From an uncultured Nitrososphaerota archaeon (lineage in GTDB: Archaea; Thermoproteota; Nitrososphaeria; Nitrososphaerales; CADDZS01), in NCBI GenBank assembly GCA_963799845.1, contig CAWCYI010000004.1, forward strand, positions 1,728,001-1,792,000: a DNA stretch of 64,000 nucleotides, written 5' to 3'. Positions within the stretch are counted from its first letter, which is position 1, and every line of letters starts with the position of its first letter. The notes below the pieces were generated by a model, which worked only from the letters and a program-made list of their open reading frames with translations, made no database searches and had not been told where the DNA came from. The translations under genes and the position numbers were made by a program. Below are positions 46,022 through 64,000 of the stretch, piece by piece.

Positions 46022-46240
46022 TTGGTTCCAAGAAATCGCATCGTCGAGATTCTGTGTTTTGTTGGGATCGTTTTGCTGCTGCACAGTGCATCGAGGACTC
46101 TGATTGTCATGGGAATTGGCAGCGGCTCGTACTACTTTGGATTGCAAGGAGCGTTCGCGCCATTTGAAAACATCGAAGGATTGGTCGGCGCGATACTCGC
46201 GATGAATCCGCTGTTCCTTCTGGTATTCACCAAAACTTAG
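46022..46240 (+). CDS. Possible small membrane protein
   Basis: Two hydrophobic segments in an otherwise empty gap; its stop overlaps the convergent gene. Confidence 0.35.
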   Translation: MVPRNRIVEILCFVGIVLLLHSASRTLIVMGIGSGSYYFGLQGAFAPFENIEGLVGAILAMNPLFLLVFTKT

Positions 46241-47251
46241 AGCAGATCGTCCCACAACTTTTTCATTTCGAGTTGTGAAAGTTCTCTATCGTCTAGAATT
46301 TCATAACGAGAGCCCATCGCCACGGTAGTAGCTTTCATGCGACGGATTCCGGTCTCAAACTCTTCAAACGATATCCCGTAATCATGGGGACGGTACCTGA
46401 GGCCGAATGAATCCAGATCTCGCATGATTTCTTTGTAATCGGTATCATGAAAGAAAGCACTGATGACGCAGCCGGTCCCGAGGACTTCACCATGGGAGAA
46501 AGTTCTGCCGGTCACTTTTTCCAGACTGTAAAAAAAGACGTGCTCGATCCCCTCCTGCGGCCAGGTTCTCCCCTTTGCGATGAACGGCCACTGCAATTCA
46601 TTCAGCCTGATGTGCATCGAGACAAGTGATTTGATTCCCTTCTCTGTCACGTCGTAGATCTCCCGTCTATCGGCGTGTAGCTTTGAAAGGACTTTTTCCG
46701 CCTCTTTCACGATCTCCGGATCATATTCGGCTGACGCGTGCTCCTTCGCATATTTCCAGTCCATCAGCGATATTCTCGTGGAATAAATGTCCCCGATACC
46801 GGCTCTGTTCAATCTTGACGGAGCTGTCCTGATCAGATCCGCGTCGATGACAACCTCGCTTGCGAACTTGTTTCCCAGGTACGTTACTATCCCATTTGTT
46901 CTAATCGCGGCAACGGGAGTGATGTAAGCGTCTGCTCCAATTACCGATGGAATTGAGATGAAATCCCCTCCGGTCTGGAGGGAGACGTACTTTGCAGAGT
47001 CGATAGCCCTGCCGCCGCCAATGCCGACGATCTTCTTAATGCCGGCGGCCTTTGGAACAAAGCCGTCGAGAATCTCCTTGTCGGATTCGTGGATCAAGAA
47101 AACTTTTTCGGGATCATTTTTCAGCGTCTTGGATAAACTGTGCCAGGGAGGATCTACCGTAAACAGCGCGTATTTTTCTCCGAGATTGTCCAGGTACCGA
47201 GCTTACCGGCTCGTAGAGGACGTCATTCTCGGTCAGATGCCAGCTTGACAC
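46237..47251 (-). CDS. Glycerol-1-phosphate dehydrogenase-like (EgsA/AraM-related) metal-dependent dehydrogenase; frameshift at ~47204
   Basis: GIGGGRAIDSAK, RAGIGD and EH...HGE motifs; the 5' end was reconstructed by hand from a GTG at 47251. Confidence 0.75.
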
Positions 47252-47257
47252 GGTGCT

Positions 47258-48303
47258 CTAACCAGAATTGAAATGCGGCAGGATTGACTTTGCAAACTTG
47301 TCCAGCGGCTCGTCGCCCCTCTCCTGAAACTCGATAACTATGTGCTTCGCGCCAGCTCTTCTGTAAGTTTCGATTTTCTCTACGATCTGCGACGGGGATC
47401 CTGACACCAGAAATTGCAGGGCGAGTTCATCCGGGATGGAATTTTCGGCGTTGTTGATCAACTGATCCGCCCTGTCGCTCACCAGCATCTGCTGGTACGG
47501 GATCAGCTCTTCCGGCGGCTTGAACCCGATGAATTTCAGGGTGTGTATCTCGGCGAGGAGAGCTTTTTCGTGTTGCTGATTGCTTCGCGAAGTTGCGTGC
47601 CGCTTTCCGCCAGCGAGATAAAAATCCACGCGACCGGTTCGAAATTTCGATTCTGGATATTCTTCGCGGACCTGAATCCCTCCACGATCTTCAGCCGTTT
47701 CGCGTAGGTTTCGGCGGTATTGAGCCACGGGATCCATCCGTCGCCAAACTCACCCGCGACGCGCAGGCCGTTCATTCCTCCCAGCGCGCCGACGATTATC
47801 CTCGGCGAGAACTTGGTCTTGACATCGAGCCATGCATTATTCAAATGGAAATGATTTCCCTGAAACGAGATGGGATTTTTCCGGTCAGATTCCCAGAGGA
47901 GCCTTATCACCTGTATCGCCTCGGCGAGTCGTTCAGCTCTAACTTTTGGGGCATCGAACGGAAGGCCGAACGGAATTAAGTTCATCGCCTCCCCGGCGCC
48001 TATTCCGAGAGAGACCCTGCCACCAGTGATTTCAGAAAGTGTTGCGACTGTTTGCGCAGTCCTCGCGGGGTGCATCCGCTGAGTGTCCGTAACGGCAGTT
48101 GCAAATTCAATTTTTTTTGTCTGGACGCCAATCGCGCTGATAGTAGTCCAGGGCTCTACCTTGGATCCGCCAGTGTCGATCAGGTGATCAACCGCCCAAA
48201 GCGAATCGAAGCCGAGCTTCTCGCACCTGATTCCCAATTGTATTGATTCATTCGGAGGAACGAAATCGATTGTGGTGCCGATCTTCAAGTGTCCTGTCAT
48301 CAA
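47258..48303 (-). CDS. LLM-class (luciferase-like, probably F420-dependent) oxidoreductase; -1 frameshift at ~47565
   Basis: GFDSLWAVDH, LGIGAGE and AGEFGDGWIP motifs; the C-terminus GSPSQIVEKIETY lies in a second frame. Confidence 0.87.
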
Positions 48304-48412
48304 GAAGATTCGGATTGAGGCTGCCTAGATTAATGAATCGGGGACGATCCTTTTTTCCGCCACTGCAACTGGTTGCTGCAGAGTCAGCGCACCGGACTGG
48401 TTTAATTGCGGG

Positions 48413-49348
48413 CTATAGTTTCCCCAGTACTTCCCTTGCAAACTTCTCGGAGTAGACTTTGGTCTTTTCCAGATTCTCGCGCAAAAAGCTGAGGGCGAGA
48501 AAAGAAACTCCAAGGTTTTCAAATTCCCTAACGTCTGCGACAATTTGTCGAGAGTTGCCGGCAAATAAGTTCCCTTTATCTGGATGATCGTTCAATTCAA
48601 AATTCTGTGCAAGGTACCCTATCCTGACGTCGTCTGGATTCCTACCCGTCTTCTTTACCTGCTGCTTGAGCCGTGCGATAGCTTCGGCCATTTGCGAGGA
48701 ATTTGATAGTAGAAACCTCGGGTTGCTGTCGATCGGAAACCAACCATCTCCAAGCTCGGCCGCCCGCCTGACTGCCCTCGGGCTTTCACCGCCGACCCAA
48801 ACTGGTGGATGCGGCTTCTGGACGACCTTCGGCGAAAAGTGGACATTGGAGAATTGAAAGTACTCACCGCTGAAGCTGGGATTTTTCTCGGACCAGATCA
48901 CTTTGAGAATCCGCAGGTATTCGTCCATGATCTTACCTCTTTCTTCGTACGGGATATGGAGAAGGTCGAACTCATCCTTCATCCAACCCACGCCGACTCC
49001 GACGTCCAGCCTCCCACCGGAAAGATAGTCCACGGTTGCGAGGGTGTTTGCCATGGCGAGCGGGTTCCGGTAGGGGATAACTGCGATACCGGTCATCAGA
49101 CGGATTTTTTCTGTTTTTGCCGCAACGAAGGAAAGTGTCGTTGATTGATCAAGGTCTTCGGTTGTATCAGTATACTCGCCTGAGGTCGAGTACGGGTACG
49201 TCGTGTTGATCTTGTTTGGCATTACGATGTGGTCGGAGGGTTCTACCAGCGTATCGAAGCCGAGGCTTTCGGCGTGCTCTGCAAGCTTGGTAAGGTTGTC
49301 AGGTTTTGACAGTTCACCGTCGTGGGGGAGACAGAATCCGAATTTCAA
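48413..49348 (-). CDS. LLM-class F420-dependent oxidoreductase (Rv2161c-like)
   Basis: SDHIVMP, DYLSGGRL..GVGVGW, PPVWVGG and RRAAELGDGW motifs. Confidence 0.9.
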   Translation of the reverse strand: MKFGFCLPHDGELSKPDNLTKLAEHAESLGFDTLVEPSDHIVMPNKINTTYPYSTSGEYTDTTEDLDQSTTLSFVAAKTEKIRLMTGIAVIPYRNPLAMANTLATVDYLSGGRLDVGVGVGWMKDEFDLLHIPYEERGKIMDEYLRILKVIWSEKNPSFSGEYFQFSNVHFSPKVVQKPHPPVWVGGESPRAVRRAAELGDGWFPIDSNPRFLLSNSSQMAEAIARLKQQVKKTGRNPDDVRIGYLAQNFELNDHPDKGNLFAGNSRQIVADVREFENLGVSFLALSFLRENLEKTKVYSEKFAREVLGKL

Positions 49349-50349
49349 GATCTATCCCCTACTTTAGGCGAGATCATCGACTTGAGCCCGATGTAGTCTT
49401 CTCTTTTGGCCAGCCCCTTGAGCGGTTCTCGTTTCAAATATCGTTCGATGTTTCGCACCGCATTCTTGACCGCAAGCTCGTGTGACTCTGGCACGGCATC
49501 CGCATTGTGAGGGGAGCCCAAAAAATTTGGGAGATCGAGGAAGGGGTAGTTCTGAGCGAATGGCGCGCCGGGAGCGGGATATTTCCACCAGACGTCAATC
49601 CCGGCCTTGAAAGAAGGATTCGCTCGAAGATGATCATAGAGTGCTTTCTCGTTTATGATCTTACCGCGACCCACGTTGACCAAAATACAGTTTGCTTTAG
49701 TTAAGCGGAGATTTGATTCGTTAATCAAATTCATAGTACCGACAGTCAGTGGCATCGCAATCACCACAATGTCAGACTTCGACAGGAGCTCGTTAAGACC
49801 GCCGAGGCTATTCGTCCTGTCAAAGAATTCGACTTTTCTTCCCGACGAGTTGATTCCAATGGTGCCTATACCAAACGCCTTTGCAAGTCGAGCTACGGCC
49901 TGTCCAATTCCTCCAGTCCCAATAATTCCAATAGTCTTGCCCTTCAGAAAGATTCCTTGACCCTGATCGAAGACTGATTTTCTAAGCTCCTCTTCTCGAA
50001 GGATGATATTCCTCGCAAGACAGAGGATCATTCCAAAAACGTGTTCAGCAATTTGCTCGGAAAAGGCACCGACGTTTCCGCATACCAGGACTTCTCGTGG
50101 AATCACTTCGAAATCGATTACGTCGACTCCGGCAGATAGCGTCTGTACTAAACGAAGATTCTTCATCCGTTCAAACTTGATCTCGTTTAACCACTTTGTG
50201 TCGGAGACGAGGAGGATCTCTACATTCGAGGCTACTTCGTCTGGAAGCTCGTCACCCTCGACTATTTCGATTGTGTTGCTGGAAGACAGTTGCAGTCTCG
50301 AACGCAACGTGCTTGAGAGCTTGGTTGTGGAAAAAATTATTCTTGTCAA
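49345..50349 (-). CDS. D-2-hydroxyacid dehydrogenase family protein
   Basis: SAGVD, GTGGIG, VNVGRG, DVWW and SPHNA motifs. Confidence 0.9.
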   Translation of the reverse strand: MTRIIFSTTKLSSTLRSRLQLSSSNTIEIVEGDELPDEVASNVEILLVSDTKWLNEIKFERMKNLRLVQTLSAGVDVIDFEVIPREVLVCGNVGAFSEQIAEHVFGMILCLARNIILREEELRKSVFDQGQGIFLKGKTIGIIGTGGIGQAVARLAKAFGIGTIGINSSGRKVEFFDRTNSLGGLNELLSKSDIVVIAMPLTVGTMNLINESNLRLTKANCILVNVGRGKIINEKALYDHLRANPSFKAGIDVWWKYPAPGAPFAQNYPFLDLPNFLGSPHNADAVPESHELAVKNAVRNIERYLKREPLKGLAKREDYIGLKSMISPKVGDRS

Positions 50350-50739
50350 TCGCCAACTGAATTCTCAAATAGGCTTGGTCTTTTAATTGGTTCGATGAAA
50401 CAGTGACTTTTCAGGTCTGCAGGTACAAAACTACCTGAAATAATCTTCGTTAGTAGTAGTGTAACTGTGAGATTGTGAAAACAGACTTCTTTGCTTACAA
50501 TAGCATTAGAAATAACCAGAAGAGCTAGAAACGAGCTCTCCGGTACGCAGGATTGCGCCCCCGTAGAACAGGGCGAAAATGGCATAATAAATCAATGATC
50601 GTGAAACAAATGGCCAAGAGAGCTGGAGGGTACACGAGGAGGTCGTGGACCTGCCGGAAATTCGATGGCGAAGATCTCGCAGGGTATCTTGGAGCCGGGC
50701 ACACTGTAACCTGCTTCAGAGTTTGGAAAATGATTTTTC

Positions 50740-51111: not shown

Positions 51112-52242
51112 ATGAAGATTTCCAGGACATTAGACGAAGCTGACCTAGAGGATCTGGTGATTGGTGCCACAATCCTATCATCCGGAGGAGGAGGCTCGGT
51201 TGAGAACGCGTTTAGGATAATAAGGAAAATATCGGAAAAAGGGCTTGCACCGCACCTTGTTGACCCTGCCGGATTACCCGCAAAGGCTCTCGTTTTTGCT
51301 CCCGGCGATGTTGGTGGAGGGATAACGTCGGAAGAAGAAAAAAGGTTTGAGAGGGTCTACAAAACGAAGATCCCGATAAAGTGGAAACGGTGGCCGTGGG
51401 ATAAATGGTCGTCCGCATCAATAGCGGAACTTGCCAAATATCTGGGCCGGGAACCTGACGCGTTTCTGGCGATGGAAGCAGGTCCCGGTTCTTTTCTCAG
51501 CGTGATCTTCGAAGCAGCCGAAAGCGGAAAGCCGACGATCGATGGTGATACTGTCGGACGCGCGGTTCCTGAGATGACGATGTCGAAACTTTTTCTCAAT
51601 AATACGAGAGTTCTCGCCTCGGCTTCGACATCGCACTTTGGAGATATTATCATCTTGAAACAGATCCCCAATTTCAGGAGAATGGAAGATATCGTCAGGT
51701 CGTTCGCGAGTGCCTCGGGAGGAGGTGTGGGACTAGTTTCTGCGTTCGAAGGATCTACTGTCAGCAGAGGGACGATACCAAATTCAATTTCGCGATGCAT
51801 CAAGCTCGGTAGAGAGGTACGGACTTCTCCGATGAAGGACCTGTTGAAGACTGTCCTAGAAGAGACACGTGGAAAGATCCTATTTGTCGGGAAAGTGGAT
51901 AAAGTGGAATCCGAGCCCAGGCTCGGATATCTATTCGGGTCTTATTTGATGACCGGCACCGGCGAATATCGAGGGGCCAAGCTCAAAATCTGGTTCAAGA
52001 ACGAGAACCACGTAGCTTGGAAGAACGGGAGGCCGGTTGCCACATCTCCTGACACGATTACAATTTTTGATCCTGAGAAAAGACAGGGAATGTGGAATTG
52101 GGACGTGGTTCCAAGAGACAGGGAGTTAATTGTACTCGGAATACCTGCGGATAATATTTGGAAAACAAAAAGGGGTCTCGAAGTTCTGGGCCCCAGAGCT
52201 TTCGGTTTTGATATTGAGTACAGGCCGGTTCGCGCCGGCTAA
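51112..52242 (+). CDS. DUF917 family protein (thiohydantoin desulfurase-like), paralogue 1
   Basis: GATILSSGGGG, DGDTVGRAVPE, WFKNEN, PD.I and GPRAFG motifs. Confidence 0.9.
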   Translation: MKISRTLDEADLEDLVIGATILSSGGGGSVENAFRIIRKISEKGLAPHLVDPAGLPAKALVFAPGDVGGGITSEEEKRFERVYKTKIPIKWKRWPWDKWSSASIAELAKYLGREPDAFLAMEAGPGSFLSVIFEAAESGKPTIDGDTVGRAVPEMTMSKLFLNNTRVLASASTSHFGDIIILKQIPNFRRMEDIVRSFASASGGGVGLVSAFEGSTVSRGTIPNSISRCIKLGREVRTSPMKDLLKTVLEETRGKILFVGKVDKVESEPRLGYLFGSYLMTGTGEYRGAKLKIWFKNENHVAWKNGRPVATSPDTITIFDPEKRQGMWNWDVVPRDRELIVLGIPADNIWKTKRGLEVLGPRAFGFDIEYRPVRAG

Positions 52243-52997
52243 TAGCGCAGGTCCTTCATGAAATCTTCTATCGCTTGTGTGATGTTCTTCGCGGCTCCCT
52301 CTATCATGTTCTTTCCCCATTCCCTGTTTGCCTTGGTCGCATCTCCGAGAATTCCGGATGAAGTAACATCCTTGAACGTCCTGAATGTGGACGTGTAGAA
52401 GCCCTCCGACATCTTGATCGCTTCAGAAGCCTGGGGCATCTCCCGTTTCGCCCTTTCGATTTTGACCTGATCCGGTCTCAGATAGAGAGTCCAGGAAGTC
52501 TCCTGCGCGTTAGCGTGAAAGCCATCGTCGAAACTGATTCCCTTGCCGAGCTCCTTCGGGATAAAGTCCCACCAGTTGAAACCGATAACCTTCTTTGGAG
52601 AGAGCTCGTTTCTCGATTCGGCCGTGGCTATTGACAGCGCTGCCGTATTGCCTCCGTGGCCGTTGATGAAGATTACAGGATCAAAACCGTGGGAGGTGAG
52701 AGACCGCGCATAGTCCTTGACTACTGCGATGAACGTCTGTGCCTGCAGTGTAATGGTTCCGGGAAAAGGCATGTGGTGTGCGGACACGCCGGGTCGGAGT
52801 GGTGGCGCTACGACGCACCCCAGCTGCATTGCTACCAAGATGGACACCTCAAGAGGTGCAACGACATCTGAATAAAGTGGTAGATGTGGACCATGCTGCT
52901 CGATCGAACCGGTGGGTACTAGAATCGTCTTGGTCTGTTTCAGCAATTCCTGAACATCAGGCCATGTCATTTCTTCCAGAAAGATTGAATTTGGCAA
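52239..52997 (-). CDS. Creatininase/creatinine amidohydrolase family protein
   Basis: GSIEQHGPHLP..SD, NGHGGN, HA...ETS and SGILGD motifs; start approximate. Confidence 0.92.
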   Translation of the reverse strand: MPNSIFLEEMTWPDVQELLKQTKTILVPTGSIEQHGPHLPLYSDVVAPLEVSILVAMQLGCVVAPPLRPGVSAHHMPFPGTITLQAQTFIAVVKDYARSLTSHGFDPVIFINGHGGNTAALSIATAESRNELSPKKVIGFNWWDFIPKELGKGISFDDGFHANAQETSWTLYLRPDQVKIERAKREMPQASEAIKMSEGFYTSTFRTFKDVTSSGILGDATKANREWGKNMIEGAAKNITQAIEDFMKDLRY

Positions 52998-53222
52998 TTT
53001 TATTGTGCTACCTTTGGGTTCTAAGATCAGAGTGCACTCTATTAAATTTCTGGAAAGACATTCCCCTTTATAGGAGAGCAAGGTTTCTTACTCTCAGAAT
53101 TTAAGCCTGAATTTCTCGAGGAAAATTTGTATGACCAGTCTGCAAATGCACAAGGCGTGTCCAAAAAGTCACGATATCACTCAATGATTATATTTTTCGG
53201 AGAATCTCAGGTATAGAGCACG

Positions 53223-54281
53223 TTGAGTAAGAGAGGCTACACCGACTACCATGAGAGGATACCGCCGGGATGGCGTATAGCTCCAGTCGATCGCTGGCCG
53301 ATCAACAATCACGATTCGGGTCAAACGCCAAATTTCGATGTAGGAAAGTGGAGGTTCAGGACGTATGGTGAAGTAGAAAACCCACTCGACATAACGTATG
53401 AAGAATTCCGGAATCTTCCGCATATTACAAAGACGCTTGACCATCACTGCATCGATGGTTGGAGTTATCTCGGTCAGGTGTGGAACGGCGTCGACATTTC
53501 CGTCATAAAGGAAAAGACAAAAGTCCGGAAAAGTGCTTGCTACATTTTGGTTGAGAGTAGCCAAGGTCTGAGCCAGACGTTTCCAATAGGCCAGGATCTC
53601 TTGCTTGCGGATGGCCAGAATGGGTCAGTCCTGCCGAGACCCGCCGGGTATCCGCTGCGGATAGTGGCTCCAGGAGAATTCGGAATGAAAAGCACGAAGT
53701 GGGTTGAGAAGATCAAGTTTTGCAGCGAGCGGGAAGTCGATGCACTGGATAGGATGGTCATGCAGAACGGCCTGTACGAATTGTACTCCGAGAAATTGAG
53801 TGACTTCAATCCATGGACTGTCGATAATAAAGAGAGAAAGAAATTTCTCTGCAAGAATTTCGCCGCTGGAGTCGAGGCGGTGAGGTTTAAGAAAAAGCAG
53901 GAATTTCTCGACAGTAACGATGCGATCTCTTCAGAAACTTTTGCACTTTGCAAGCTAGGCGACCTAAAGGAGAATGCAGGTTCAAAGTTTGTAATTAACG
54001 GAAACGAGATTCTTGTGGTAAAGTCAGGGAACTTGATCTACGGGGTAGAGCCAATTTGTCCTCACCTTGGTTCAGATTTGTCTCGCGGAAGGGTCAACTG
54101 CGATGCCAAAACCGTCAAATGTCCCTTGCATGGCGCGGTGTTTGATATTGCTAGTGGGACATGCCTAAGCGGCAGCTATGGATGCGACGGCGATACTTTT
54201 CCTCCAATCCGAACTTACCGGATAAAGGTAGAATCTGATACCGTATTCCTTGAAAGAAATCAGGAATGGGGAACGATTTAG
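53223..54281 (+). CDS. Molybdopterin-dependent oxidoreductase domain (sulfite oxidase/MsrP-like) fused to a C-terminal Rieske ferredoxin
   Basis: HCIDGWS (Mo-ligating Cys) and GYPLRIVAPGEFGMKSTKWV, followed by CPH...CPLHG. Confidence 0.85.
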   Translation: MSKRGYTDYHERIPPGWRIAPVDRWPINNHDSGQTPNFDVGKWRFRTYGEVENPLDITYEEFRNLPHITKTLDHHCIDGWSYLGQVWNGVDISVIKEKTKVRKSACYILVESSQGLSQTFPIGQDLLLADGQNGSVLPRPAGYPLRIVAPGEFGMKSTKWVEKIKFCSEREVDALDRMVMQNGLYELYSEKLSDFNPWTVDNKERKKFLCKNFAAGVEAVRFKKKQEFLDSNDAISSETFALCKLGDLKENAGSKFVINGNEILVVKSGNLIYGVEPICPHLGSDLSRGRVNCDAKTVKCPLHGAVFDIASGTCLSGSYGCDGDTFPPIRTYRIKVESDTVFLERNQEWGTI

Positions 54282-55352
54282 GACAGGTTGAACGCGCTGG
54301 GACTGACAAGCTTTATGAGCTTCCTCAGACAGCCACTTCTCCGCGACCGGGATCTTGAAGACCTTGCAACGATTGCCGTACCTCAACTGATCTGTCGTTA
54401 TTGGAAGAAGAGATTCTAGATCGTGGATTGAAATTATCTGGGGCGTGGCGACGATCGTCTCTTCATTCTGCTCGAGTATGCGCTTGGCAATCAGAAACTC
54501 GTTCTGGAACAAGATCTTGAGTTTCTGGTCGCGATAGTGATCAATCCCTTCTATCAAAACATGGCCGATCGCAAAGCCCCTGAGATTGAATCTCTTCAGG
54601 TCAGTCACCTTCCCAACGAAGATTTCCTTCGCCCCGCATGAGTCGATCAGCGATTGCTCTGCTTCCTTGTTTTTCATCCCTTCGAGAAGCGATTCCCCGA
54701 TGTTTAGGGCGAGGCTGAGCGTGTTGGGGATTGCACTTTTTCTGTATCCAGCGCCATTCATTGGATGGCTGGCTACGCATCCTCGTCCACCCATCGCGAC
54801 GGTTATGGATCTGGCGAGCTTTTCTGTCCATGAATCGGAAAGACCGTTTATGATGACCTCGTTACCCTTCTCGTCGGAAATGCACATCGGGCTTGCTCTC
54901 TGGCCGTAAGCGTTGAAAGTTGTCATCTGAAGCTCGGGAAAAGCTCTTCCTTCTCCATCGCCATCGATTACGGGCAGCTTCACGTAGACCGCATTTATGA
55001 AGGGGACCAGCGAGTTGATCCCTCCGATTTCTGCGGGAGAAAGGTGCGTCGCATTTCTCCCGATGATCTTTTCAAGACTTCTGGTCGACCTCGCATACTC
55101 GGTTCCCGCGGGAATCTTTTCAACGCCGATCGTGGGCGATCCCATGCCGGCAATGCAGAAAGAAAAATGTGAATCATCGATTTCATCGAAAGGCGTAACC
55201 TCCAGCTCCTCGACTTGGAATCTTTCCATCGCTGATTTTAGAAGAAGCGCGCCAAGGTACGGATTTCCGCCCCCTCCTGACCCGAGGACAGCGCTGCCAA
55301 GCGCGAGAGAGTCAATGTTTGATTTTCTGAATTTCCTGAGCTCAGATCTCAT
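54278..55352 (-). CDS. DUF917 family protein, paralogue 2; +1 frameshift at ~54313
   Basis: GSAVLGSGGGG, EIGGINS, DGDGEGRAFPELQM and FQNE motifs. The corrected end HKLVSPSAFNLS* stops at 54278, which removes a 117-bp antisense overlap. Confidence 0.9.
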
Positions 55353-55469: not shown

Positions 55470-57188
55470 CTATGATTTGTAATACACGTTGTACAGACCG
55501 TACTCAAAGCTGGGACCCAGGGAATAGGTGTACCCGCCGACGTGCGGGGACAACGCCACGAAGTACGGGGCAATGTCCAGGTATACATCCACGTAATTCT
55601 GAGTGATGTCTGTCTGGAGCTGGTAGAAGTACTGCTGTCTCTGGGCGTCGTTTATTGTTGTCCTCTCCTGTGTAAGAAGGCTATCTACAGTTGAGTTGCT
55701 GAACCACTCCATGGAAATCCACGTGCCGTGAGCTGAAGATGAATACGGGGAGTAGAGCAACGAATCAACATCTGGATAGAAAGGCAGGAATTCGATGATT
55801 GTAAAGTCAGGCGTCGAAGTAACATTCGCTGCAATCTGAGTGACGGTAAGGAACGTTTGGGGCTGGATGTTTACCGTGACGCCGATCTGCCCCAGATCCT
55901 TCTGGAATTCCTCGGCTATCTGTTGTTCCTGAATGCTGCCCTGGACATACACTATAGTAAGAGCTTGAGCACCCGGGTTGACTCCTGAACTAGTAATCGC
56001 CGCTTTGGCTGCGCTAATGTTTTGTGAAAGTGGCTTTACAGCCGAGTTATAGTCCTTGTAGGATTGCGGAACAGGACCGGCGAGCTGGACACCGCCAGGG
56101 AAAATATAGGGCAGTGACGAGTAATTGAAAGCTAGCGCGACTGCCTTTCTGAAAAGGGTGCTATTCAGCGGGGCCTTCTGGGTATTCATCTTGATCATGT
56201 AGAAGGTCGCGGTCGAATAGTTCATGAATTGCCAGCCCAAAGACGAGTGTAGAGACTGGTATGTCGAGAGCTGAAGATAATCACTCACCCAGTCCAACGA
56301 GCCTTCTTTGGCAAGAGACAATACGGTGGCATCGGAAGTCACAATCGTGTAAGTGACTGTATTGTACGGGTGCGGGTTACTGGACCATCCCAGCCAATAT
56401 CCGGAGAATCTATCGATGGTAAGGGAAACTCCAGGTTGGTAGTTTCCGAGCATGTAAGGCCCAGATCCTGCTTCGTGGTTGTTCAGCCAGCCAGCTCCCC
56501 AGTCACCCATCGGGTTGCTCGATGAGGAATTTGCCAGGTGCTGCATTACGGTTTGCTGGTCTACGATGAAGAAAAGAGAAAGCGTGCTCACAAACGGGGC
56601 GTAGACTGTTTCGGTTTGCATCTGGACCGCCGAAGAATTCAGAGCTTTGATTCCGGAAGAGTTCAATATTCCTATCCAGAATGAAGCAGAACCCTCGCCG
56701 ATTGCAAGCATCCGCTGCATCGAGAAAACCACGTCGCTCGCATTTAGGATGTTCCCGCTGTGGAACTTGATGCCCTGATTAAGAATGAAAGTATACGTCT
56801 TGCCGTCGGATGCTGCGGTCCAGCTGCTGGCGACGTGCGGAATGATCGTCGAATTCGGAGCCTGCGTTACGAGGTTATCATACATGTTGTACATGGCAAG
56901 ATCTTGGGTGTAATCATTTCCAACCGCTGGGTCGATGTTTCCAAAGTCCTGCTGAACCTGCACATTCAGCGTAGGAGTCGATGCGTTTGATGCGGTAGAT
57001 GAGGTCGTAGAAGTGGTTGAAACCACAGGTGAACTTGAAGTGGTAATCGTTGACGAGGTTGAAGTCGTAGATGTGGTCGTTGATTTGGTAGATAACGCGA
57101 GGATCCCAGCTCCAGCGATGATTATTATTATGACGACGACTACGACAATCAGAGCGACTCTGCTAATGGCATGTCTAAAATTCTTCAA
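55470..57188 (-). CDS. Peptide/nickel-type ABC substrate-binding protein (family 5)
   Basis: N-terminal TM helix and Thr/Ser linker; DGKTYTF.L..GIKFHSG and GSGPY motifs. Confidence 0.92.
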   Translation of the reverse strand: MKNFRHAISRVALIVVVVVIIIIIAGAGILALSTKSTTTSTTSTSSTITTSSSPVVSTTSTTSSTASNASTPTLNVQVQQDFGNIDPAVGNDYTQDLAMYNMYDNLVTQAPNSTIIPHVASSWTAASDGKTYTFILNQGIKFHSGNILNASDVVFSMQRMLAIGEGSASFWIGILNSSGIKALNSSAVQMQTETVYAPFVSTLSLFFIVDQQTVMQHLANSSSSNPMGDWGAGWLNNHEAGSGPYMLGNYQPGVSLTIDRFSGYWLGWSSNPHPYNTVTYTIVTSDATVLSLAKEGSLDWVSDYLQLSTYQSLHSSLGWQFMNYSTATFYMIKMNTQKAPLNSTLFRKAVALAFNYSSLPYIFPGGVQLAGPVPQSYKDYNSAVKPLSQNISAAKAAITSSGVNPGAQALTIVYVQGSIQEQQIAEEFQKDLGQIGVTVNIQPQTFLTVTQIAANVTSTPDFTIIEFLPFYPDVDSLLYSPYSSSAHGTWISMEWFSNSTVDSLLTQERTTINDAQRQQYFYQLQTDITQNYVDVYLDIAPYFVALSPHVGGYTYSLGPSFEYGLYNVYYKS

Positions 57189-57306
57189 AGTTGAAACTTT
57201 GAAGGTGGTAAGCGACTTAGCTCTTAAGCTTAGCGGAATTCGTTAATCGGAAAAAAACGAAATTCGCACGCTTAAATATTATCCAGTGGTAGTTGCCTCC
57301 CATTCA

Positions 57307-58323
57307 ATGCGGTTTTGGGAGTACGTTTTTCGCAGAGCAATGCTCGCGCTCTTGACTCTCGTAGGACTTTCTGTTGTCATTTTTTATTTGTCCAGAGTCC
57401 TCCCCGCTGATCCGGGCAGACTTGCGCTGGGGCCGTATGCGAGCGAGCAACAGGTGAAATTATACGATCACCAGCTCGGGCTTGACAAGCCGATCTACGA
57501 ACAATATTTTCTCTATCTCTGGAACTTTATTCACGGACAGTGGGGACAATCGATAATCACCCACAACAATGTGCTTGCTGACGTTGAATACTATTTTCCA
57601 TCAACCTTTGAACTGATCACAATTTCGATAATTCTCACAGCGCTCATTGGGATACCTCTGGGAATAGTCGCGGCGAGCCGCCGCGGAAAGGGATCGTCAG
57701 CAGTGATTAGATTACTCTGGATAATCGGAATTGCGATACCTCCGTTTGCGACCGGAATCGCTTTACAGTTGATCTTCGGCTATTATCTCGACCTCCTGCC
57801 GGTCGCGACCCAGATCAGCGGAGCTCTGCCGACGAGGATCACCGGAATGGTTTTGGTCGACAGCCTGCTCACACTTAACTGGCCAGCGTTCGTGAGCTCT
57901 TCCGCACATTTGATCCTTCCCGAGATCGCACTTTCCCTTACCGGCATCGGGCAGATCGCCCAGTTGACCTACGCTGGAGTTCTTGACGAAACTGGTGAGG
58001 ATTACTACACCGCCCTAATCGCATTCGGAGCAAAGTCTAGATCGCTCAACTTCAAGTATGCAATGAGATCCGCTCTTGTTCCTGTTTTGACAGTTCTTGG
58101 TCTGCTCTACGCTTCTCTGATAGCTTACGCGTTTCTGGTCGAAGATGTGTTCACCTGGGGCGGACTGTCCCAGTACGCGGTGACCGCCATGCAGACAAAG
58201 GATTTCAACGCGATTGTCGCGACCGTCCTCATAGTTGGCTTCTTCTACATCGTGCTTAATTTCCTCGTGGATATTGCCCTCGGATATGTTGATCCCAGAA
58301 TGAGATTGGATGGAGCAGAATGA
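57307..58323 (+). CDS. ABC permease (DppB/OppB-like)
   Basis: GLDKPIYEQY, FPSTFEL, VEDVFTWGG and VDPRMR motifs. Confidence 0.92.
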   Translation: MRFWEYVFRRAMLALLTLVGLSVVIFYLSRVLPADPGRLALGPYASEQQVKLYDHQLGLDKPIYEQYFLYLWNFIHGQWGQSIITHNNVLADVEYYFPSTFELITISIILTALIGIPLGIVAASRRGKGSSAVIRLLWIIGIAIPPFATGIALQLIFGYYLDLLPVATQISGALPTRITGMVLVDSLLTLNWPAFVSSSAHLILPEIALSLTGIGQIAQLTYAGVLDETGEDYYTALIAFGAKSRSLNFKYAMRSALVPVLTVLGLLYASLIAYAFLVEDVFTWGGLSQYAVTAMQTKDFNAIVATVLIVGFFYIVLNFLVDIALGYVDPRMRLDGAE

Positions 58324-59207
58324 CCGAGACATTAACAAAACCGCCAAAAGGTGAGAGGTTCAAGGAACTCACAAACCAGCTTTACCGTTTGACGTATGAT
58401 CCGCTCGCGATAGGCGGCCTGGTAATCTTGGCAGGGATCATCTTCGTCGCGATCTTTGCTCCGTTCCTTACCCCATATGCAAATCAGGTGGGGCCTTACA
58501 CGAACTTTGCGGCGGAGTATATGCATCCGTCGTGGGCTCACTGGTTCGGGACGGACAATGTTGGAAAGGATATTTTCACCCAGGTTATCTTTGGTTTCAG
58601 AATTTCGCTTTCAATTGCGTTGGTAGTCCTCGTGGCGAGCGCCCCTGTTGGAATCGTGCTCGGCCTGGTCGCGGGGTACTACGAAGGATGGATAGGAGCG
58701 TTAATCCAAAGGGTCACCGAGATATTTCTGTCGCTGCCCGCCCTAATTTTCGCACTCGTAATCGCGGCCATCCTCGGTCCAAACCTTCAGGACGTAATAA
58801 TCGCCCTGATCAGCCTCTGGTGGAACTGGTATGCGAGGATAATGTATACCGTGACAAAATCACTCAAAAATCGCCCTTACGTGGAAGCAGCCAAAGTGCA
58901 GGGAGCCGGGCCCTTGCGAATAATGTTCAGGGAGATCCTTCCGAATGCGACATCGACCCTGACCGCGAAGATGATGCTCGATCTGGGCTTCATCATACTG
59001 ATAGAATCGGCCATGGGGTTCCTCGGGATTGGGGCACAGCCGCCAACGCCTGATCTTGGAGTGATGGTGGCCTCTGGGCTTCCATACCTCGCGACGTACT
59101 GGTGGATTTCGCTTTTCCCGAGTCTTGCTCTGACTGTCCTCGTCCTCTCCTTCAACTTAATCGGAATCGGGATAAGGGATCTCTTTGACGTGAAGGTGGT
59201 CGCCTAG
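58320..59207 (+). CDS. ABC permease (DppC/OppC-like)
   Basis: HWFGTDNVGKD, YVEAAK..GA and EILPN motifs. Confidence 0.92.
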   Translation: MTETLTKPPKGERFKELTNQLYRLTYDPLAIGGLVILAGIIFVAIFAPFLTPYANQVGPYTNFAAEYMHPSWAHWFGTDNVGKDIFTQVIFGFRISLSIALVVLVASAPVGIVLGLVAGYYEGWIGALIQRVTEIFLSLPALIFALVIAAILGPNLQDVIIALISLWWNWYARIMYTVTKSLKNRPYVEAAKVQGAGPLRIMFREILPNATSTLTAKMMLDLGFIILIESAMGFLGIGAQPPTPDLGVMVASGLPYLATYWWISLFPSLALTVLVLSFNLIGIGIRDLFDVKVVA

Positions 59208-60185
59208 ATGTCGCTGCTTGAAATTGACAAGCTGAATCTCAGCGTTACCGCCAATCGGATCAAGGTACCGATTTTAAGGAATGTAAGTATCAATGTGGAG
59301 AAGGCCGAGGTCGTAGCGATCGTGGGAGAAACCGGGAGTGGGAAGACGCTCACGGCGAAAGCGGTAATGGGCATTCTCCCCAAGAACTCCATCATCGATT
59401 CTGGGCATGCATTCTATGAGGGAGTCGACATACTTACTTCCTCATCTGAAGCCCGCAAGGCTCGAAAAAAGATCGCTATGGTATTCCAGAACCCGATGTC
59501 ATCCCTGAATCAACTTTTCAAGATAAAGGATCAGATGAGCGACGTTTTGAACTGGTCCGGCGTCGACAAATCGCAGATGACAAAGGAGACACGGATCGAC
59601 AAAATTATTTCGACTCTGGAACAGGTGAAATTAGGGCAAAACGCACTTGACATGTATCCCTTCCAGCTGAGCGGGGGGATGAGACAAAGGGTGATGATAG
59701 CGATGTCACTCTTGCGCGAGCCAGATCTCCTGATAGCAGATGAACCAACAACTGCGCTCGACGTTACAACGCAGAGGGAGATACTGAACCTGCTCCAGGA
59801 GCTCGCTGGCAAGAACAAGATGAGCCTCTTGCTCATCACGCACAATTTGGGAATCGCTTTTGAGACTGCCGAGCGGACCTACGTATTCTACGCCGGAAGG
59901 GTCGTGGAAGAGGGCACAACCTCATCCTTGTTTCGGAACCCTCTGCATCCATACACCCGAGGCCTCATTGATTCGATCCCGTCTCTGGACAGGTCCAGGG
60001 CGATGGAGGGAATTCGAGGAGAGATTTCTCAGGACGACAGGAGCACCGAATCGTGCTGCTTCAACAGGAGATGTCCAATCGCGATTGAGATCTGCACGAA
60101 GGAAGAGCCGCAGCTGGAAGAACTGGAGTCGCGACACCGAGTGGCGTGCTTTGTGGCGAGTCAGAGGGCGAGGCGAACGAAGTGA
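59208..60185 (+). CDS. ABC ATPase (DppD/OppD-like)
   Basis: GETGSGKT, LSGGMRQR, DEPTTALD and HPYT motifs, plus a C-terminal Cys cluster. Confidence 0.93.
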   Translation: MSLLEIDKLNLSVTANRIKVPILRNVSINVEKAEVVAIVGETGSGKTLTAKAVMGILPKNSIIDSGHAFYEGVDILTSSSEARKARKKIAMVFQNPMSSLNQLFKIKDQMSDVLNWSGVDKSQMTKETRIDKIISTLEQVKLGQNALDMYPFQLSGGMRQRVMIAMSLLREPDLLIADEPTTALDVTTQREILNLLQELAGKNKMSLLLITHNLGIAFETAERTYVFYAGRVVEEGTTSSLFRNPLHPYTRGLIDSIPSLDRSRAMEGIRGEISQDDRSTESCCFNRRCPIAIEICTKEEPQLEELESRHRVACFVASQRARRTK

Positions 60186-61139
60186 AACAAATTTTTGAAG
60201 TAGACCAGGTCTCCAAGACGTTTGAGCTTCGAACCGGCTTGACGCGAAAGAAGGTGGGAGAAGTTAGGGCAGTTGACAATGTCTCATTCAGTGTCGGTCG
60301 GGGAGAGACGCTCGGAATCATCGGCGAAACTGGATCTGGCAAGACGACGATAGCGAAGATGCTGTTGCTACTCGTTAGACCTGATTCGGGGAAGATACTC
60401 TTCGAGGATCGCGATATCTCCTCATTTTCCAAGTCAGAGGAGAAAGATTACAGGAAGAAGGTTCAAACCGTGTTCCAGGACCCGACTTCGTCTCTCAATC
60501 CGAGGCACAATGTGAAGACGATCATCGAATCTCCGCTCAAGATTCATCACGAGGAATTCAAGAAGCGAATCCCCGACCTGTTGAAACTCGTCAATCTAGA
60601 CGAATCTTACGAGTACAGATATCCGCATACACTGAGCGGGGGAGAGAAACAGCGCGTAGCTGATCGCCCGTGCCCTGGCTTTAAACCCTGAGGTTATCAT
60701 CCTGGACGAACCTACTTCCGCACTTGACGTATCCGTACAGGCAAAGATAATTGCTCTGTTGAAAAGCTTCAAAGAAAAGCTCGATATCACCTATCTCTTT
60801 ATCTCGCATGACCTGAGTCTCGTCGCGAACTTTTGCGATCGAACTCTGGTTGTTTACAACGGAAAAATGTGCGAGATGGGAAAAACTTCGGAGATTTTCA
60901 AAAATCCGATCCATCCGTACACCGAACTCTTGCTTTCTTCTGTCCCAGTCGTCAGCGAGTCGGAGGAAAACATGAAGCCGAAGGACGTGCCAATCCAAAC
61001 GAATTCAAGATCCGTCAGATACACAGACGGCTGCGTTTTTCGCGACAAGTGCTGGTTGAAGCAGAGCATCTGCGAGACGCGGGTGCCGGAGTTCAGGGAG
61101 GTTTCCCAGGATCACTGGGTCGCCTGCCACGTGAGGTGA
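60182..61139 (+). CDS. ABC ATPase (DppF/OppF-like); +1 frameshift at ~60662
   Basis: LSGGEKQRVA|IARALALNPEVIILDEPTSALD is restored by removing one base. Confidence 0.9.
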
Positions 61140-61145
61140 AATGCG

Positions 61146-61478
61146 ATGACTTCTGACGACGATGAAAACGGTGAACACAAATCGAGGTCTTCGATCGGAG
61201 CTTCGCGGTTCTTTGTCTGGTACGGAAATAGAAGGAGACGAGGGATGCTTGACGATGCAAGACTGTCGTTCAGGGATTATCTCGTGAAAATTGGATTAAT
61301 TTTTGCGTTCATGCTGCTCGACCTGATTTTCTTTCCTTCCTTGGTTCAGATTTTAATCCCGATCTCCACCGATTTCTACGTAGCGTGGGCGGCCGGCGGA
61401 TTGTTGCTGGTATTTGTCGAAAAAAAGATGCTCGACAGAATCTTGCCGCCGCGGAAAATACCTACGAGCAATCAGTGA
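61146..61478 (+). CDS. Hypothetical two-TM membrane protein
   Basis: In-operon ORF with two hydrophobic helices. Confidence 0.6.
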   Translation: MTSDDDENGEHKSRSSIGASRFFVWYGNRRRRGMLDDARLSFRDYLVKIGLIFAFMLLDLIFFPSLVQILIPISTDFYVAWAAGGLLLVFVEKKMLDRILPPRKIPTSNQ

Positions 61479-61537
61479 ATTAATTTCTCACGAGTGTTGG
61501 AAGATTTAATAGCTGAAAATCCGTTCGAGGCTAATTC

Positions 61538-62616
61538 ATGAAGATTACCGCGCAGGAAATCGAGGATATTGCCATTGGTGCCGCAGTCCTCGGAACCGGA
61601 GGTGGAGGAGATCCATTCATCGGGAAGCTGCTTGCGCTCGACGCAGTGGCAAGGTATGGTTCAGTTGAATTAATCCAGCCGGAAGAAGTACCAGACGAAG
61701 GGCTCGTGGTACCATCCGCGGGGATTGGAGCTCCCACTGTGTTGGTAGAGAAAATTCCGAACGGAGAAGAGGGGCTGGCTGCCCTCAGGATTCTCGAGGA
61801 CAAGATCCACAAAAAGCTGTCGCGATTACGCCGATTGAGCAGGGCGGACTGAACTCGGAAATCCCAATTTCTGTTGCGGCGAAGACCAGGCTCCCCCTGA
61901 CGGACTGCGACGGGATAGGAAGAGCCTTCCCCGAGCTCCAGATGTGCTCGTTCAGCCTCGACGGAATTCCTGCAAATCCAATGGTACTCGCCGACGAGAA
62001 AGGAAATGTGGTACTCCTTGAAACGATAGACAACTTGTGGACTGAGAGATTCGCACGAAGTACTGTTGTCCAGATGGGCGGATCTGCGCTCAGTGTTGCT
62101 TATCCTATGACGGGTGCGCAGCTGAAAAAATCGTGCATAAAGGGGACTGTTTCACTCTCGCTGAGGCTGGGCGAAGTGACCCGTTTTGCGAGAGAAAAGG
62201 GCGAAAATCCTCTCCACGACATTGCAAAGATACTCAGGAGCAAAATATTGTTCAAGGGAAAGTTGGTCGATATTTTCAGGAGGACGACGGGCGGTTTTGC
62301 AAGGGGCGAGGCACTCTTTCAGGGATTGGATGAATTTGACGGAGAATCCCTGAGGATCAAGTTCCAGAACGAGAACCTGATCGCCATGCGAAATGAGAAG
62401 AAGGTTGTAGCGACGGTACCGGACTTGATCTCTGTTCTCGATGTGGAGACAGGCATCGCGATCACAACTGAAGAGCTAAGATACGGAAATCGTGTCGTCA
62501 TCATAGGTTCGCCCTGCAACGAAAGATGGAGGACGCCCAAGGGCATCACCGTCGCGGGTCCGAGGTATTTCGGTTATGATGTTGACTATGTTCCCGTGGA
62601 GGAGCTGAGCGCTTAG
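61538..62616 (+). CDS. DUF917 family protein, paralogue 3; -1 frameshift at ~61815
   Basis: GAAVLGTGGGGDP, then (frame-corrected) EQGGLNS, DCDGIGRAFPELQM, FQNEN and GPRYFG. Confidence 0.9.
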
Positions 62617-62617
62617 T

Positions 62618-64000
62618 ATGCCGTACAGAATTGGAATCGACGTTGGTGGCACGCACACCGACGCGGTTATACTCGACGAGAACGACAAGCTCATCTGGGC
62701 CGAGAAAGTTGACACAACGGAGGACGTATCGACAGGGATCAATCAGGCCCTGGAAAGGGTTCTAAAGAATAGCTCGGTTGATCGGAAGAAAATCATCGCG
62801 GTAATGTTCGGGACGACCCACTGCACGAATGCCGTTGTTGAAAGAAAAAATCTCACGCACGTCGGTCTCCTGCGCATCGGAAAGCCTGCGACTCTGGGAA
62901 TTTCGCCACTATTCTCCCTGCCCAAAGATCTTCGATTGGCCATCGGAGATACCTGGTCTATAGTCTCGGGGGGGCATGAGTTCGACGGAAGAGAAATCTG
63001 GGCGTTTGATGAAAAAGCCACCCGAGAGGCGGCGGAGGACTTTAGGTCCCGCGGCGTCGAATCTGTTGCGATAGTGTCGGTCTTCTCTCCGGTCAATTCC
63101 ATTCATGAGGAGCGAGCCCAAAAGATATTCGCCGAGGTCATGGGCCCCACAGTTCCGCTAACTCTTTCCCACGAAATTGGAAGCATCGGTCTGTTGGAGC
63201 GCGAAAACGCCTCGGCCCTCAACGCCGCCCTAATGAAAGTCGCGCAAAAAGCAATTTCAGGATTCGTGAGCGCGGTGAATGAATCTGGGCTGTCCTCTGC
63301 GAAGATCTATCTTACGCAGAACGATGGGACGCTGATGTCGGTTGATTATGCCCGAAAGTACCCGGTCAAGACAATCGCGTCAGGTCCCACAAATAGCATG
63401 AGGGGCGCGGCATTTCTCACGGGGATCTCTGATGGAGTAATCGTTGACATTGGCGGTACGACTGCGCTCGTCGGAGCTATCATGCACGGTTTCCCGAGGG
63501 AATCCAACATTGCTGTCGAAATTGGAGGGGCCAGGACCAATTTCAGGATGCCCGATTTAATTGCGATAAGCTGCGGCGGCGGGACGGTCGTAAAATATGA
63601 TCAGAATGCCGTGCAGATAGGTCCAGAAAGCGTGGGGTTTCGGATAACCAGAGAGAGCGTTGCATGGGGCGGAAAAACCTTGACCACGACCGACGTGAGC
63701 TTGGGACTAGGTTATTCCAAAGTCGACGACCCTACATCTGTCGCGGAGAGAGTCGGGAATTCGTTTAGCAAGCAACTGCTTGAGCGAGCGCGTGACAGGA
63801 TAATCGCGATCATAGAAGATTCGATTGACAGGATGAAGACATCCGCAGATCCGGTGGAGGTTGTACTGGTAGGCGGAGGTGGAATCATTGTTCCGGAGGA
63901 TTACTATGGAAAGTTCAAGGGAGTATCGAGGGTCGTGAGACCGTCGCATTTCCAGTATGCGAACGCGATAGGAGCAGCTATCGCGCAGGCAAGCGGAGAG
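62618..64000 (+). CDS. Hydantoinase/oxoprolinase family protein (runs off the window)
   Basis: Not in the ORF track; hand-translated motifs MPYRIGIDVGGTHTDAV, GTTHCTNAVV, GLLEREN, SGPTNSMRGA, DIGGTT and ANAIGAA. The start and the window-end motifs share one frame. Confidence 0.92.
   Translation, partial: MPYRIGIDVGGTHTDAVILDENDKLIWAEKVDTTEDVSTGINQALERVLKNSSVDRKKIIAVMFGTTHCTNAVVERKNLTHVGLLRIGKPATLGISPLFSLPKDLRLAIGDTWSIVSGGHEFDGREIWAFDEKATREAAEDFRSRGVESVAIVSVFSPVNSIHEERAQKIFAEVMGPTVPLTLSHEIGSIGLLERENASALNAALMKVAQKAISGFVSAVNESGLSSAKIYLTQNDGTLMSVDYARKYPVKTIASGPTNSMRGAAFLTGISDGVIVDIGGTTALVGAIMHGFPRESNIAVEIGGARTNFRMPDLIAISCGGGTVVKYDQNAVQIGPESVGFRITRESVAWGGKTLTTTDVSLGLGYSKVDDPTSVAERVGNSFSKQLLERARDRIIAIIEDSIDRMKTSADPVEVVLVGGGGIIVPEDYYGKFKGVSRVVRPSHFQYANAIGAAIAQASGE

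Follow-up and report, generated by a model that had tools for sequence, protein, structure and literature searches.

The last 18 kb of a 64,000-nt stretch of DNA from an uncultured archaeon (contig CAWCYI010000004.1 of assembly GCA_963799845.1; G000:C4:1728001-1792000 in our numbering of genomes and contigs, G000 being the host), hereafter the window, carry 16 genes between positions 46237 and 64204, and among these are three genes for DUF917 proteins, a family-5 ATP-binding cassette (ABC) importer and a short HyuA-like ATPase. The genes most relevant here form two divergent units. On the minus strand, a family-5 substrate-binding protein (SBP5) of the Dpp/Opp/Nik type (55470-57188; PF00496, 212 bits) is followed by DUF917_2 (54278-55352, 357 aa; PF06032, 175 bits, and PF20906, 163 bits). 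The plus strand carries, in this order, the permeases PermB (57286-58323) and PermC (58320-59207; PF00528, PF19300 and PF12911), the ATPases ATPaseD (59208-60185) and ATPaseF (60146-61139), both with oligo_HPY tails (PF00005 and PF08352), the small hydrophobic orf110 (61146-61478; no match in Pfam or NCBIfam), DUF917_3 (61538-62616, 359 aa; PF06032 and PF20906, matched in two pieces) and the short HyuA-like ATPase of the ASKHA type (62618-64204, thus ending 204 nt past the window; 528 aa; PF05378, 139.5 bits, and PF01968, 109.7 bits). The third paralogue, DUF917_1 (51112-52242, plus strand, 376 aa; PF06032 and PF20906), lies outside these two units.

All genes listed in a preliminary description of the window were confirmed by Pfam and NCBIfam searches. 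Both S-Me-THD domains were found in order in each of the three DUF917 proteins, with 89-239 bits per domain against a Pfam cut-off of 27, and the importer is complete, with SBP_bac_5, two BPD_transp_1 permeases and two ABC_tran plus oligo_HPY ATPases. None of its proteins reached a substrate-specific NCBIfam cut-off; for the binding protein the best NCBIfam match was NikA (104.6 bits vs 393). The whole assembly (4.6 Mb in 9 contigs, 86.7% complete and 4.9% contaminated) has four DUF917 loci, three of which fall inside 11.5 kb; this clustering is not due to chance (rough estimate, <1e-4). With mutual identities of 24-40%, the three are old paralogues and not recent tandem copies.

It should be added that the genes are intact only after correction of the reading frames. 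Frameshifts in the raw window split the genes of the G1PDH-like enzyme, LLM1, the second ABC ATPase and DUF917_3, and DUF917_2 (raw coordinates 54165-55352) was given a false tail of 48 aa overlapping the adjacent molybdopterin-Rieske gene by 117 nt. Logan short-read contigs from four runs (X1-X4, all of one study and labelled soil metagenome, X1 possibly being the source sample) were compared with the window and revealed single-nucleotide indels at positions 47197, 47563, 50485, 51068, 54317, 60662, 61515 and 61810. X1 shows all eight, and six are also present in at least one further run; those at 54317 and 61810 were seen in X1 only, that at 60662 in all four runs, while at 47197 run X2, with a depth of 2.9, has no contig with the change. 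Five of the eight coincide exactly with the predicted sites of the four frameshifts and the false tail. With all eight applied by script, uninterrupted open reading frames (ORFs) were obtained for the 16 genes and the end of DUF917_2 was placed at 54278; ATPaseF is corrected at 60662, DUF917_2 at 54317 and DUF917_3 at 61810. Because the short-read contigs carry the indels that restore the frames, the breaks are errors of the long-read assembly, at about one per 2 kb here (8 in 18 kb). Pseudogene decay had been considered since the RpoA' and RpoB frames of the host are open (1267 and 1119 aa), and was ruled out by the same indels.

A tree of 56 chosen rows was computed from the three corrected paralogues, 18 class I sequences, 5 sequences from relatives and full-length matches at 30 of the 78 loci described further below. 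It separated two clades, class I (20 rows) and class II (36 rows), each with SH-aLRT support of 100. Class I unites DUF917_2 and DUF917_3 with every DUF917 of the tree located directly upstream of a short HyuA-like gene, whilst class II comprises DUF917_1 with its orthologue from G024 (49% identity), ABC-linked genes from the window's own family, and ABC- or NCS1-linked genes from bacteria and other archaea. An alignment of 31 class I sequences has 76 invariant positions, of which DUF917_3 keeps 70, DUF917_2 keeps 64 and DUF917_1 keeps 38. Along the alignment, DUF917_3 is 45-51% identical to those DUF917 proteins of G031, G052 and G083 whose genes immediately precede a HyuA-like gene. As to the fold, the only solved relative is 2o3i (Foldseek E 3.7e-18; VIA Z 35, rmsd 2.2 over 320 residues, with a model of a class I orthologue); remoter candidates (Z of at most 5.6; CbiG/CobE-like domains with Z 4.4-5.4) were within noise and were dropped as mechanistic leads. 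The relevant passage of a 2023 paper presents DUF917 as experimentally uncharacterised and likely hydantoinase-like.

The proposed partner of class I proteins is a short HyuA-like protein. In the window it is separated from DUF917_3 by 1 nt, and its motifs DVGGTHTD, DIGGTT and GGGG are invariant in all 30 aligned HyuA-like rows, the window protein included. Full-length counterparts were found among 151 genomes of the class only in G052 (50% identity) and G083 (41%); the other matching genomes align over approximately the first 330-400 residues only, mostly within frames of 670-760 aa that correspond to canonical HyuA. A scan of metagenomes with the HyuA-like protein yielded a single contig of 2.5 kb. 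In the orthologous loci (G031, G052, G083 and metagenome contig L106, 88% identical), a class I DUF917 gene stands directly upstream of the HyuA-like gene, four cases out of four, with an 11-nt overlap of the pair in G083; in G052 one strand carries an NCS1 permease, a small ORF, DUF917, the HyuA-like protein, a hydantoin-family racemase and an enzyme of the enolase superfamily. The small ORFs preceding the pair are not alike (orf110 vs the G083 ORF, E 6; G052 vs G083, E 0.59).

The ORFs scanned between 46 and 84 kb include no HyuB (PF02538), and the nearest match, at C4:1647500, is about 143 kb away. Each of the three canonical HyuA matches of the host lies 2-3 kb or less from a HyuB match; the short HyuA-like gene adjoins DUF917 instead. 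Seven HyuB matches were noted at five places of host contigs C4 and C6. The set of ATP-dependent ring-opening or carboxylase-type enzymes in this host is unusually rich for an archaeon of its order.

A physical association of the two proteins is suggested by modelling of the G083 pair. The complex scored 0.75 (0.75, 0.75 and 0.77 in separate runs), whereas all three controls gave 0.00; of 157 solved complexes, 116 reached that mark, as did 2 of 215 mismatched pairs, although these counts are approximate here because our own alignments (30 and 31 rows) were used. Contact agreement was at least 88%, and the pLDDT of the partner was 78 or higher. The score is unlikely to reflect a solved complex already known to the predictor: no complex of this kind has been solved, and 2o3i, the sole relative of DUF917 in the Protein Data Bank (PDB), was solved alone. 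The predicted interface includes the class I invariants D33, Y35, G72, P74, E79, K80, G84, E86, R182, K250, R256 and N286 on the DUF917 side, and E121 and F156 on the ATPase side. At these positions the residues of DUF917_2 resemble those of DUF917_3, for which reason one HyuA-like ATPase may serve both. Moreover, three fungal protein clusters of approximately 1004-1017 aa (127, 165 and 142 members) combine Hydantoinase_A and both S-Me-THD domains in a single chain.

The company of DUF917 in other genomes was assessed at 78 loci with relatives of DUF917_1, one genome per species of the Genome Taxonomy Database (GTDB), from many bacterial and archaeal phyla. By tblastn, SBP5 was present at 20 of them, PermB and PermC at 21 each and the first ABC ATPase, a member of a promiscuous family, at 41; in most of the 21 loci having them, the permeases are 36-48% identical to those of the window, and the order SBP-PermB-PermC-ATPase-DUF917 is repeated in several loci. 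Clustering of all neighbours within 7 kb gave the oligopeptide-type ABC ATPase (34 loci), an Asp/Glu/hydantoin racemase (27), NCS1 permeases (26), PucR (21), SBP5 (20), a nitroreductase (13) and M20 peptidases (8 and 6). Overall, a family-5 ABC or NCS1 importer lies within 7 kb of DUF917 in 47 of the 78 loci and in 28 of the 34 that extend over at least 15 kb. In 18 of the 78 loci (e.g. L093:3128-4183) DUF917 is adjoined by a protein of some 351 aa that matches no Pfam family and is a conserved member of these clusters; 10 of the 18 also have SBP5.

Relatives show the same arrangement (tallies over relatives include G001, which is flagged as unpublished; no claim is made on that genome alone). 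DUF917 is followed by PermB-PermC-ATPase-ATPase in G004, G009 and G011, all from the window's own family, and at the fourth copy of the host itself. SBP5 adjoins DUF917 in the second locus of G011 and in G024, which belongs to another family of the order. Altogether, family-5 ABC parts stand beside DUF917 in five of seven loci of relatives, the exceptions being G031, with a different ABC type, and G003, where the contig measures 3.8 kb. The fourth host copy (G000:C6:718079-719154, L026) is in two pieces directly before its permease-ATPase operon, and upstream of it an M20 peptidase, an MFS transporter and a further family-5 ABC set were seen.

The remaining genes of the 18 kb behave differently. 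On the minus strand lie a G1PDH-like protein (46237-47251, 337 aa, corrected at 47197; Fe-ADH_2, PF13685, 48 bits; NF002022, 129.5 bits vs cut-off 413), the luciferase-like oxidoreductases LLM1 (47258-48303, 348 aa, corrected at 47563; PF00296, 150 bits, under all NCBIfam subfamily cut-offs) and LLM2 (48413-49348; F420-type subfamily, TIGR03619, 243 bits vs cut-off 166.9), a D-isomer-specific 2-hydroxyacid dehydrogenase (2-HADH; 49345-50349; PF02826, 148.5 bits, and PF00389) and, beyond DUF917_1, a metal hydrolase of the creatininase family (52239-53081; PF02633, 230 bits). The latter remained under the equivalog cut-offs for creatininase (TIGR04448, 145.7 vs 235 bits), MftE (134 vs 172) and IolN (101 vs 245). 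A fusion of a molybdopterin domain of the sulfite-oxidase/YedY type with a Rieske domain (Moco-Rieske; 53223-54281; PF00174 and PF00355) occupies the plus strand. Among the 78 DUF917 loci, tblastn detected 2-HADH at 4, LLM at 2, a HyuA-like protein at 2 (24-25% identity) and Moco-Rieske at 1, with the creatininase and the G1PDH-like protein at none.

Contig C102 of G003, a genome of the same genus (L119, G003:C102:1-11298), has LLM2 (91% identity), 2-HADH (79%), other genes and the creatininase (90%), and has no DUF917. The 8.8-kb filling consists of a Zn-dependent alcohol dehydrogenase, two GFO/IDH/MocA oxidoreductases, a TPP enzyme, an unassigned gene and an FAD amine oxidase, a set which recalls cyclitol or sugar catabolism. 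IolN is a creatininase-family hydrolase known from such catabolism. In G004, no DUF917 was found within the 18 kb read around the creatininase orthologue (64%). The redox block and the creatininase thus form a backbone with variable filling among close relatives, DUF917_1 being one such filling. The preliminary description had taken the 18 kb for a single pathway whose genes should be co-conserved, and this expectation largely failed: since the creatininase, the G1PDH-like protein, Moco-Rieske and LLM are nearly absent from DUF917 loci, the region is not one co-conserved unit. We regard the redox block (G1PDH-like protein, LLM1, LLM2 and 2-HADH), the creatininase and Moco-Rieske as accessory genes in their own right, located in a variable part of this large genome.

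Further observations concern these accessory genes. Use of F420 by LLM2 is plausible because the protein exceeds the F420-subfamily cut-off and the host genome has CofE (274.6 bits vs cut-off 180.65); nothing ties F420 to DUF917. Moco-Rieske has a second copy in the host (G000:C3:39711-40781, 70% identity), a 44% relative in G003 of the same genus, and another 45 protein clusters in public data. Both domains are present in most of these clusters; one carries the label Nitrososphaerales, and not one has a functional name. Other relatives were seen to have single-domain proteins only and not the fusion. The 20 kb downstream of the window (L001 1-20000, equal to 64001-84000) encode a VapC-like PIN protein, a nitroreductase with DUF6092, a short-chain dehydrogenase (SDR), an Amidohydro_3 protein (559 aa), a class V aminotransferase, an M24 peptidase, an alpha/beta hydrolase, two large SBP5 proteins, an Amidohydro_1 protein and a CN_hydrolase. 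Genes for the processing of amides and peptides are thus concentrated there for a second time.

Taking the above together, we consider the 18 kb to be a mosaic of neighbouring units whose functional core, 54278-64204, probably, although by no means certainly, encodes an importer-linked enzyme that opens the ring of an imported cyclic amide or ureide at the expense of ATP. The importer would take in a small peptide-derived compound of this sort, for instance a hydantoin, a cyclic dipeptide or a lactam. The short HyuA-like ATPase, having no HyuB, would bind DUF917_3, and possibly DUF917_2 as well, and would spend ATP on activating the ring carbonyl, with the DUF917 subunit performing the hydrolysis in place of HyuB. 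This division of labour is proposed because in the HyuA/HyuB family the ASKHA subunit activates the ring amide carbonyl with ATP and its partner hydrolyses it. DUF917_1, which belongs to a stand-alone clade and has no HyuA-like gene beside it, would probably act on a related substrate independently of ATP; its clade is accompanied elsewhere by a family-5 ABC or NCS1 importer, a hydantoin-family racemase, PucR and M20. Neighbouring genes in the genomes compared (NCS1 and ABC importers, hydantoin racemases, M20 and M24 enzymes and an enolase-superfamily racemase) suggest that the substrate is a small, chiral cyclic amide or ureide originating from amino acids or peptides. The data establish which genes are present, that they are intact, their families, the conservation of their order, the two DUF917 clades, a modelled interface and the occurrence of fusions; from these we infer the physical complex, the use of ATP, the roles of the subunits and the class of substrate. 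The preliminary description, which had placed the DUF917 genes together with an importer and a HyuA-type protein, is borne out in so far as uptake and opening of a small N-heterocycle or cyclic amide is the best reading; its sulfur chemistry, its single pathway and its F420- and molybdenum-dependent substitutions are not.

Several points weigh against this interpretation. The 78 loci were picked by likeness to DUF917_1, a class II protein, and say little about the company of class I, and the tree was computed from rows that include no characterised desulfurases. No described activity or substrate was found for the class I pair, whose members the sources list only as a 'hydantoinase/oxoprolinase family' or 'DUF917 domain-containing' protein. 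What was modelled is the complex of the G083 pair, whose proteins are 41-48% identical to those of the window. A redox step is possible in some versions of the system, given that LLM genes stand beside DUF917 in three of the seven loci of relatives. There is no hydantoin-family racemase in the region of the window, and the nearest carbamoylase-like gene, the CN_hydrolase, lies about 18 kb downstream, past a toxin-antitoxin pair. Finally, the binding protein and permeases best match importers of the nickel/opine type, under the cut-offs, and a metallophore or a plain peptide is a possible substrate.

The last point leads to one of three competing explanations, namely that the importer serves nickel, a metallophore or oligopeptides, and that the DUF917 and HyuA-like proteins act on an internal compound, their adjacency having no catabolic meaning. 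The best NCBIfam matches of the binding protein and permeases are indeed the NikA, NikB, NikC and Opp2 nickel models, all under their cut-offs, and family-5 ABC operons are very common in this host, as seen beside the fourth DUF917 and from the two further SBP5 genes downstream. We hold this explanation to be rather improbable, for the adjacency recurs in distant phyla with permeases 36-48% identical, and an NCS1 importer takes the same place elsewhere, which argues for selection for an importer as such. Somewhat less improbable, yet still unlikely, is that all 16 genes from 46237 to 64204 constitute one lineage-specific oxidative pathway for an N-heterocycle, in which LLM, 2-HADH, the G1PDH-like protein and Moco-Rieske oxidise or reduce the ring before or after its opening by DUF917 and the creatininase. 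Tight packing of the genes with few gaps would agree with it, as would the LLM genes next to DUF917 in G031, G009 and G011, a MoCoBD_2 gene beside the G009 locus, and the amidohydrolases, CN_hydrolase and two more SBP5 in the following 20 kb. Nevertheless, the genes fall into at least four transcription units on alternating strands, the LLM2-2-HADH/creatininase backbone of G003 carries other genes and no DUF917, the creatininase and the G1PDH-like protein are absent from all 78 loci, and the LLM proteins of the relatives share only 25-31% identity with LLM1 and LLM2.

The least probable of the three, and a very unlikely one, is the pathway put forward in the preliminary description, in which a thio-heterocycle is imported and desulfurised by the DUF917 proteins, with F420- and molybdenum-dependent enzymes replacing ergothionase and hydratase. 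The DUF917 trio shares its Pfam architecture with a family named after S-methyl thiohydantoin desulfurase, a Mo domain of the sulfite-oxidase type is present in the cluster, and the equivalogs for thiohydantoin desulfurase (NF058529, cut-off 440 bits) and S-methyl thiohydantoin desulfurase (NF058532, cut-off 450 bits) are the only NCBIfam models touched by the three proteins. The scores, in contrast, were 49.5 and 39.6 bits for DUF917_1, 73.9 and 69.1 for DUF917_2, and 34-65 for the pieces of DUF917_3; intact class I orthologues (G031, G052 and G083) reached 68-105 bits and class II relatives 43-81. Judged by these values, the trio does not belong to the close relatives of known desulfurases, and because the scores are so far under the cut-offs, the sulfur chemistry is unsupported and nothing links the cluster to sulfur removal. 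Two of the three proteins fall, furthermore, in the clade tied to an ATPase, and the desulfurases are not known to need one. Moco-Rieske and LLM accompany DUF917 at only 1 and 2 of the 78 loci, so that the proposed substitution of the upper pathway by F420 and Mo steps lacks comparative support, the sole hint being the unrelated LLM genes in three of the seven loci of relatives. 

As regards the upper pathway itself, the aromatic ammonia-lyase fold (PF00221) had no match in the 86.7%-complete assembly, while control genomes gave matches; neither PF00221 nor PF01175 was found among the scanned ORFs of the window, and the 20 kb downstream hold no lyase or hydratase. The sole urocanase of the assembly, on contig C8, passes as ordinary hutU (533 bits vs cut-off 375) and fails as thiourocanate hydratase (400 vs 930) and as S-methyl thiourocanate hydratase (438 vs 880). 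This gene (G000:C8:85435-86789; L027 15435-16789) consists of two ORFs, some 700 nt from the contig end and near PIN and ATPase genes. The absence of ergothionase and thiourocanate hydratase from the window, as first reported, therefore extends to the following 20 kb, and the locus is not the known ergothioneine pathway whose upper part merely happens to lie beyond the window. The window cautions against passing the name 'thiohydantoin desulfurase' to distant DUF917 proteins.

Beyond the reading that we favour, that of an importer-linked, ATP-driven ring opener, a more general scheme may tentatively be considered, although we would rather doubt it at present. DUF917 could be a general hydrolytic module for C2 of hydantoin-like rings, attacking a thiocarbonyl alone, as the known desulfurases do, and an ordinary carbonyl with the help of the short HyuA-like ATPase, which would activate the oxygen. 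DUF917 would then stand in for HyuB in a second, unrecognised ATP-dependent lineage of ring-opening enzymes; here, one ATPase would work with two exchangeable subunits, DUF917_2 and DUF917_3. If this were true, one importer-linked enzyme would have two substrate specificities, with a third, ATP-independent DUF917 nearby.

The host is an archaeon by its RpoA' (archaeal equivalog TIGR02390, 1252 bits vs cut-off 1043). In a sample of 41 relatives, archaeal AmoA was found in 8 genomes, which are all 8 genomes of four other families of the same order, and in none of the 13 that belong to the window's own family, G000 among them. On account of this pattern across families, the host is most likely a non-ammonia-oxidising member of the Nitrososphaerales, the name of the order likewise following from the distribution of AmoA. 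Signs of a mobile island are missing: there are no tRNA genes in the window and no integrase families among the ORFs from 46 to 84 kb, and GC content is 0.475-0.526 in the 18 kb against 0.45-0.53 in the rest of the window, i.e. the composition is not deviant. No Rfam RNA family was found in the window. The window as a whole looks like accessory, variable genome. At 9445-12175 it has a lone Rieske protein (9445-9849), an HTH_10 regulator (10431-10880) and a DDE transposase (10890-11933), in surroundings rich in MFS, MMPL and ABC-2 transporters. An ABC-2 permease at 40411-41164 looks split in the same way as the genes described above, and the breaks in the urocanase on C8 and in the fourth DUF917 on C6 may have the same origin in assembly errors. 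Apparent pseudogenes of this genome are hence untrustworthy before polishing, its completeness of 86.7% may be depressed by indels, and, more generally, indels of long-read assemblies should not be taken for pseudogenes.

The pair of a short HyuA-like protein and DUF917 is widespread, with at least 7,487 protein clusters for DUF917 and at least 8,000 for the HyuA-like protein at E <= 1e-30, and its chemistry, once worked out, would annotate thousands of genes and would reveal how organic nitrogen is used by those relatives of the ammonia-oxidising archaea that live as heterotrophs in soil. In this sense the window offers a usable rather than a unique example of an importer-linked DUF917/HyuA-like system. 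Particular to it are the host lineage, the two class I paralogues sharing, as we propose, one ATPase around a divergent ABC operon, and the class II paralogue 2 kb off.

Compared with known systems, the DUF917 proteins of the window have the same S-Me-THD_N and S-Me-THD_C architecture as the thiohydantoin and S-methyl thiohydantoin desulfurases of bacterial ergothioneine catabolism, and differ from them in scoring 34-74 bits against the 440 and 450 required, in the lack of an ergothionase fold or thiourocanate hydratase in the assembly, and in the placement of two of the three in the ATPase-paired clade. The structural genomics entry 2o3i (CV_3147 of Chromobacterium violaceum) shares the fold at 22-26% identity; it was solved alone, with neither ligand nor partner. 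Classical hyu clusters combine a permease, a racemase, a hydantoinase and a carbamoylase, and relatives of the window proteins similarly occur with NCS1 permeases, hydantoin racemases and M20; the proposed ring opener, however, is DUF917 with or without a HyuA-like protein and not a cyclic amidohydrolase, and the window has an ABC importer and no racemase. With the HyuA/HyuB enzymes (N-methylhydantoinase, 5-oxoprolinase, caprolactamase CapA/CapB, and acetone and acetophenone carboxylases) the HyuA-like protein shares Hydant_A_N, Hydantoinase_A and the ATP motifs. Nevertheless, its best curated match, caprolactamase subunit alpha, reached only 118.7 bits vs a cut-off of 1000, it has 528 aa instead of the canonical 670-760 or so, and the place of HyuB is taken by a DUF917 gene. 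A parallel in the combination of modules is provided by the fungal HyuA-DUF917 fusions of the ESM Atlas, to which the model of the HyuA-like protein aligns over 513-517 residues (TM 0.94-0.95 by query): the same two modules that form a single chain in fungi are encoded in the window by two adjacent genes.

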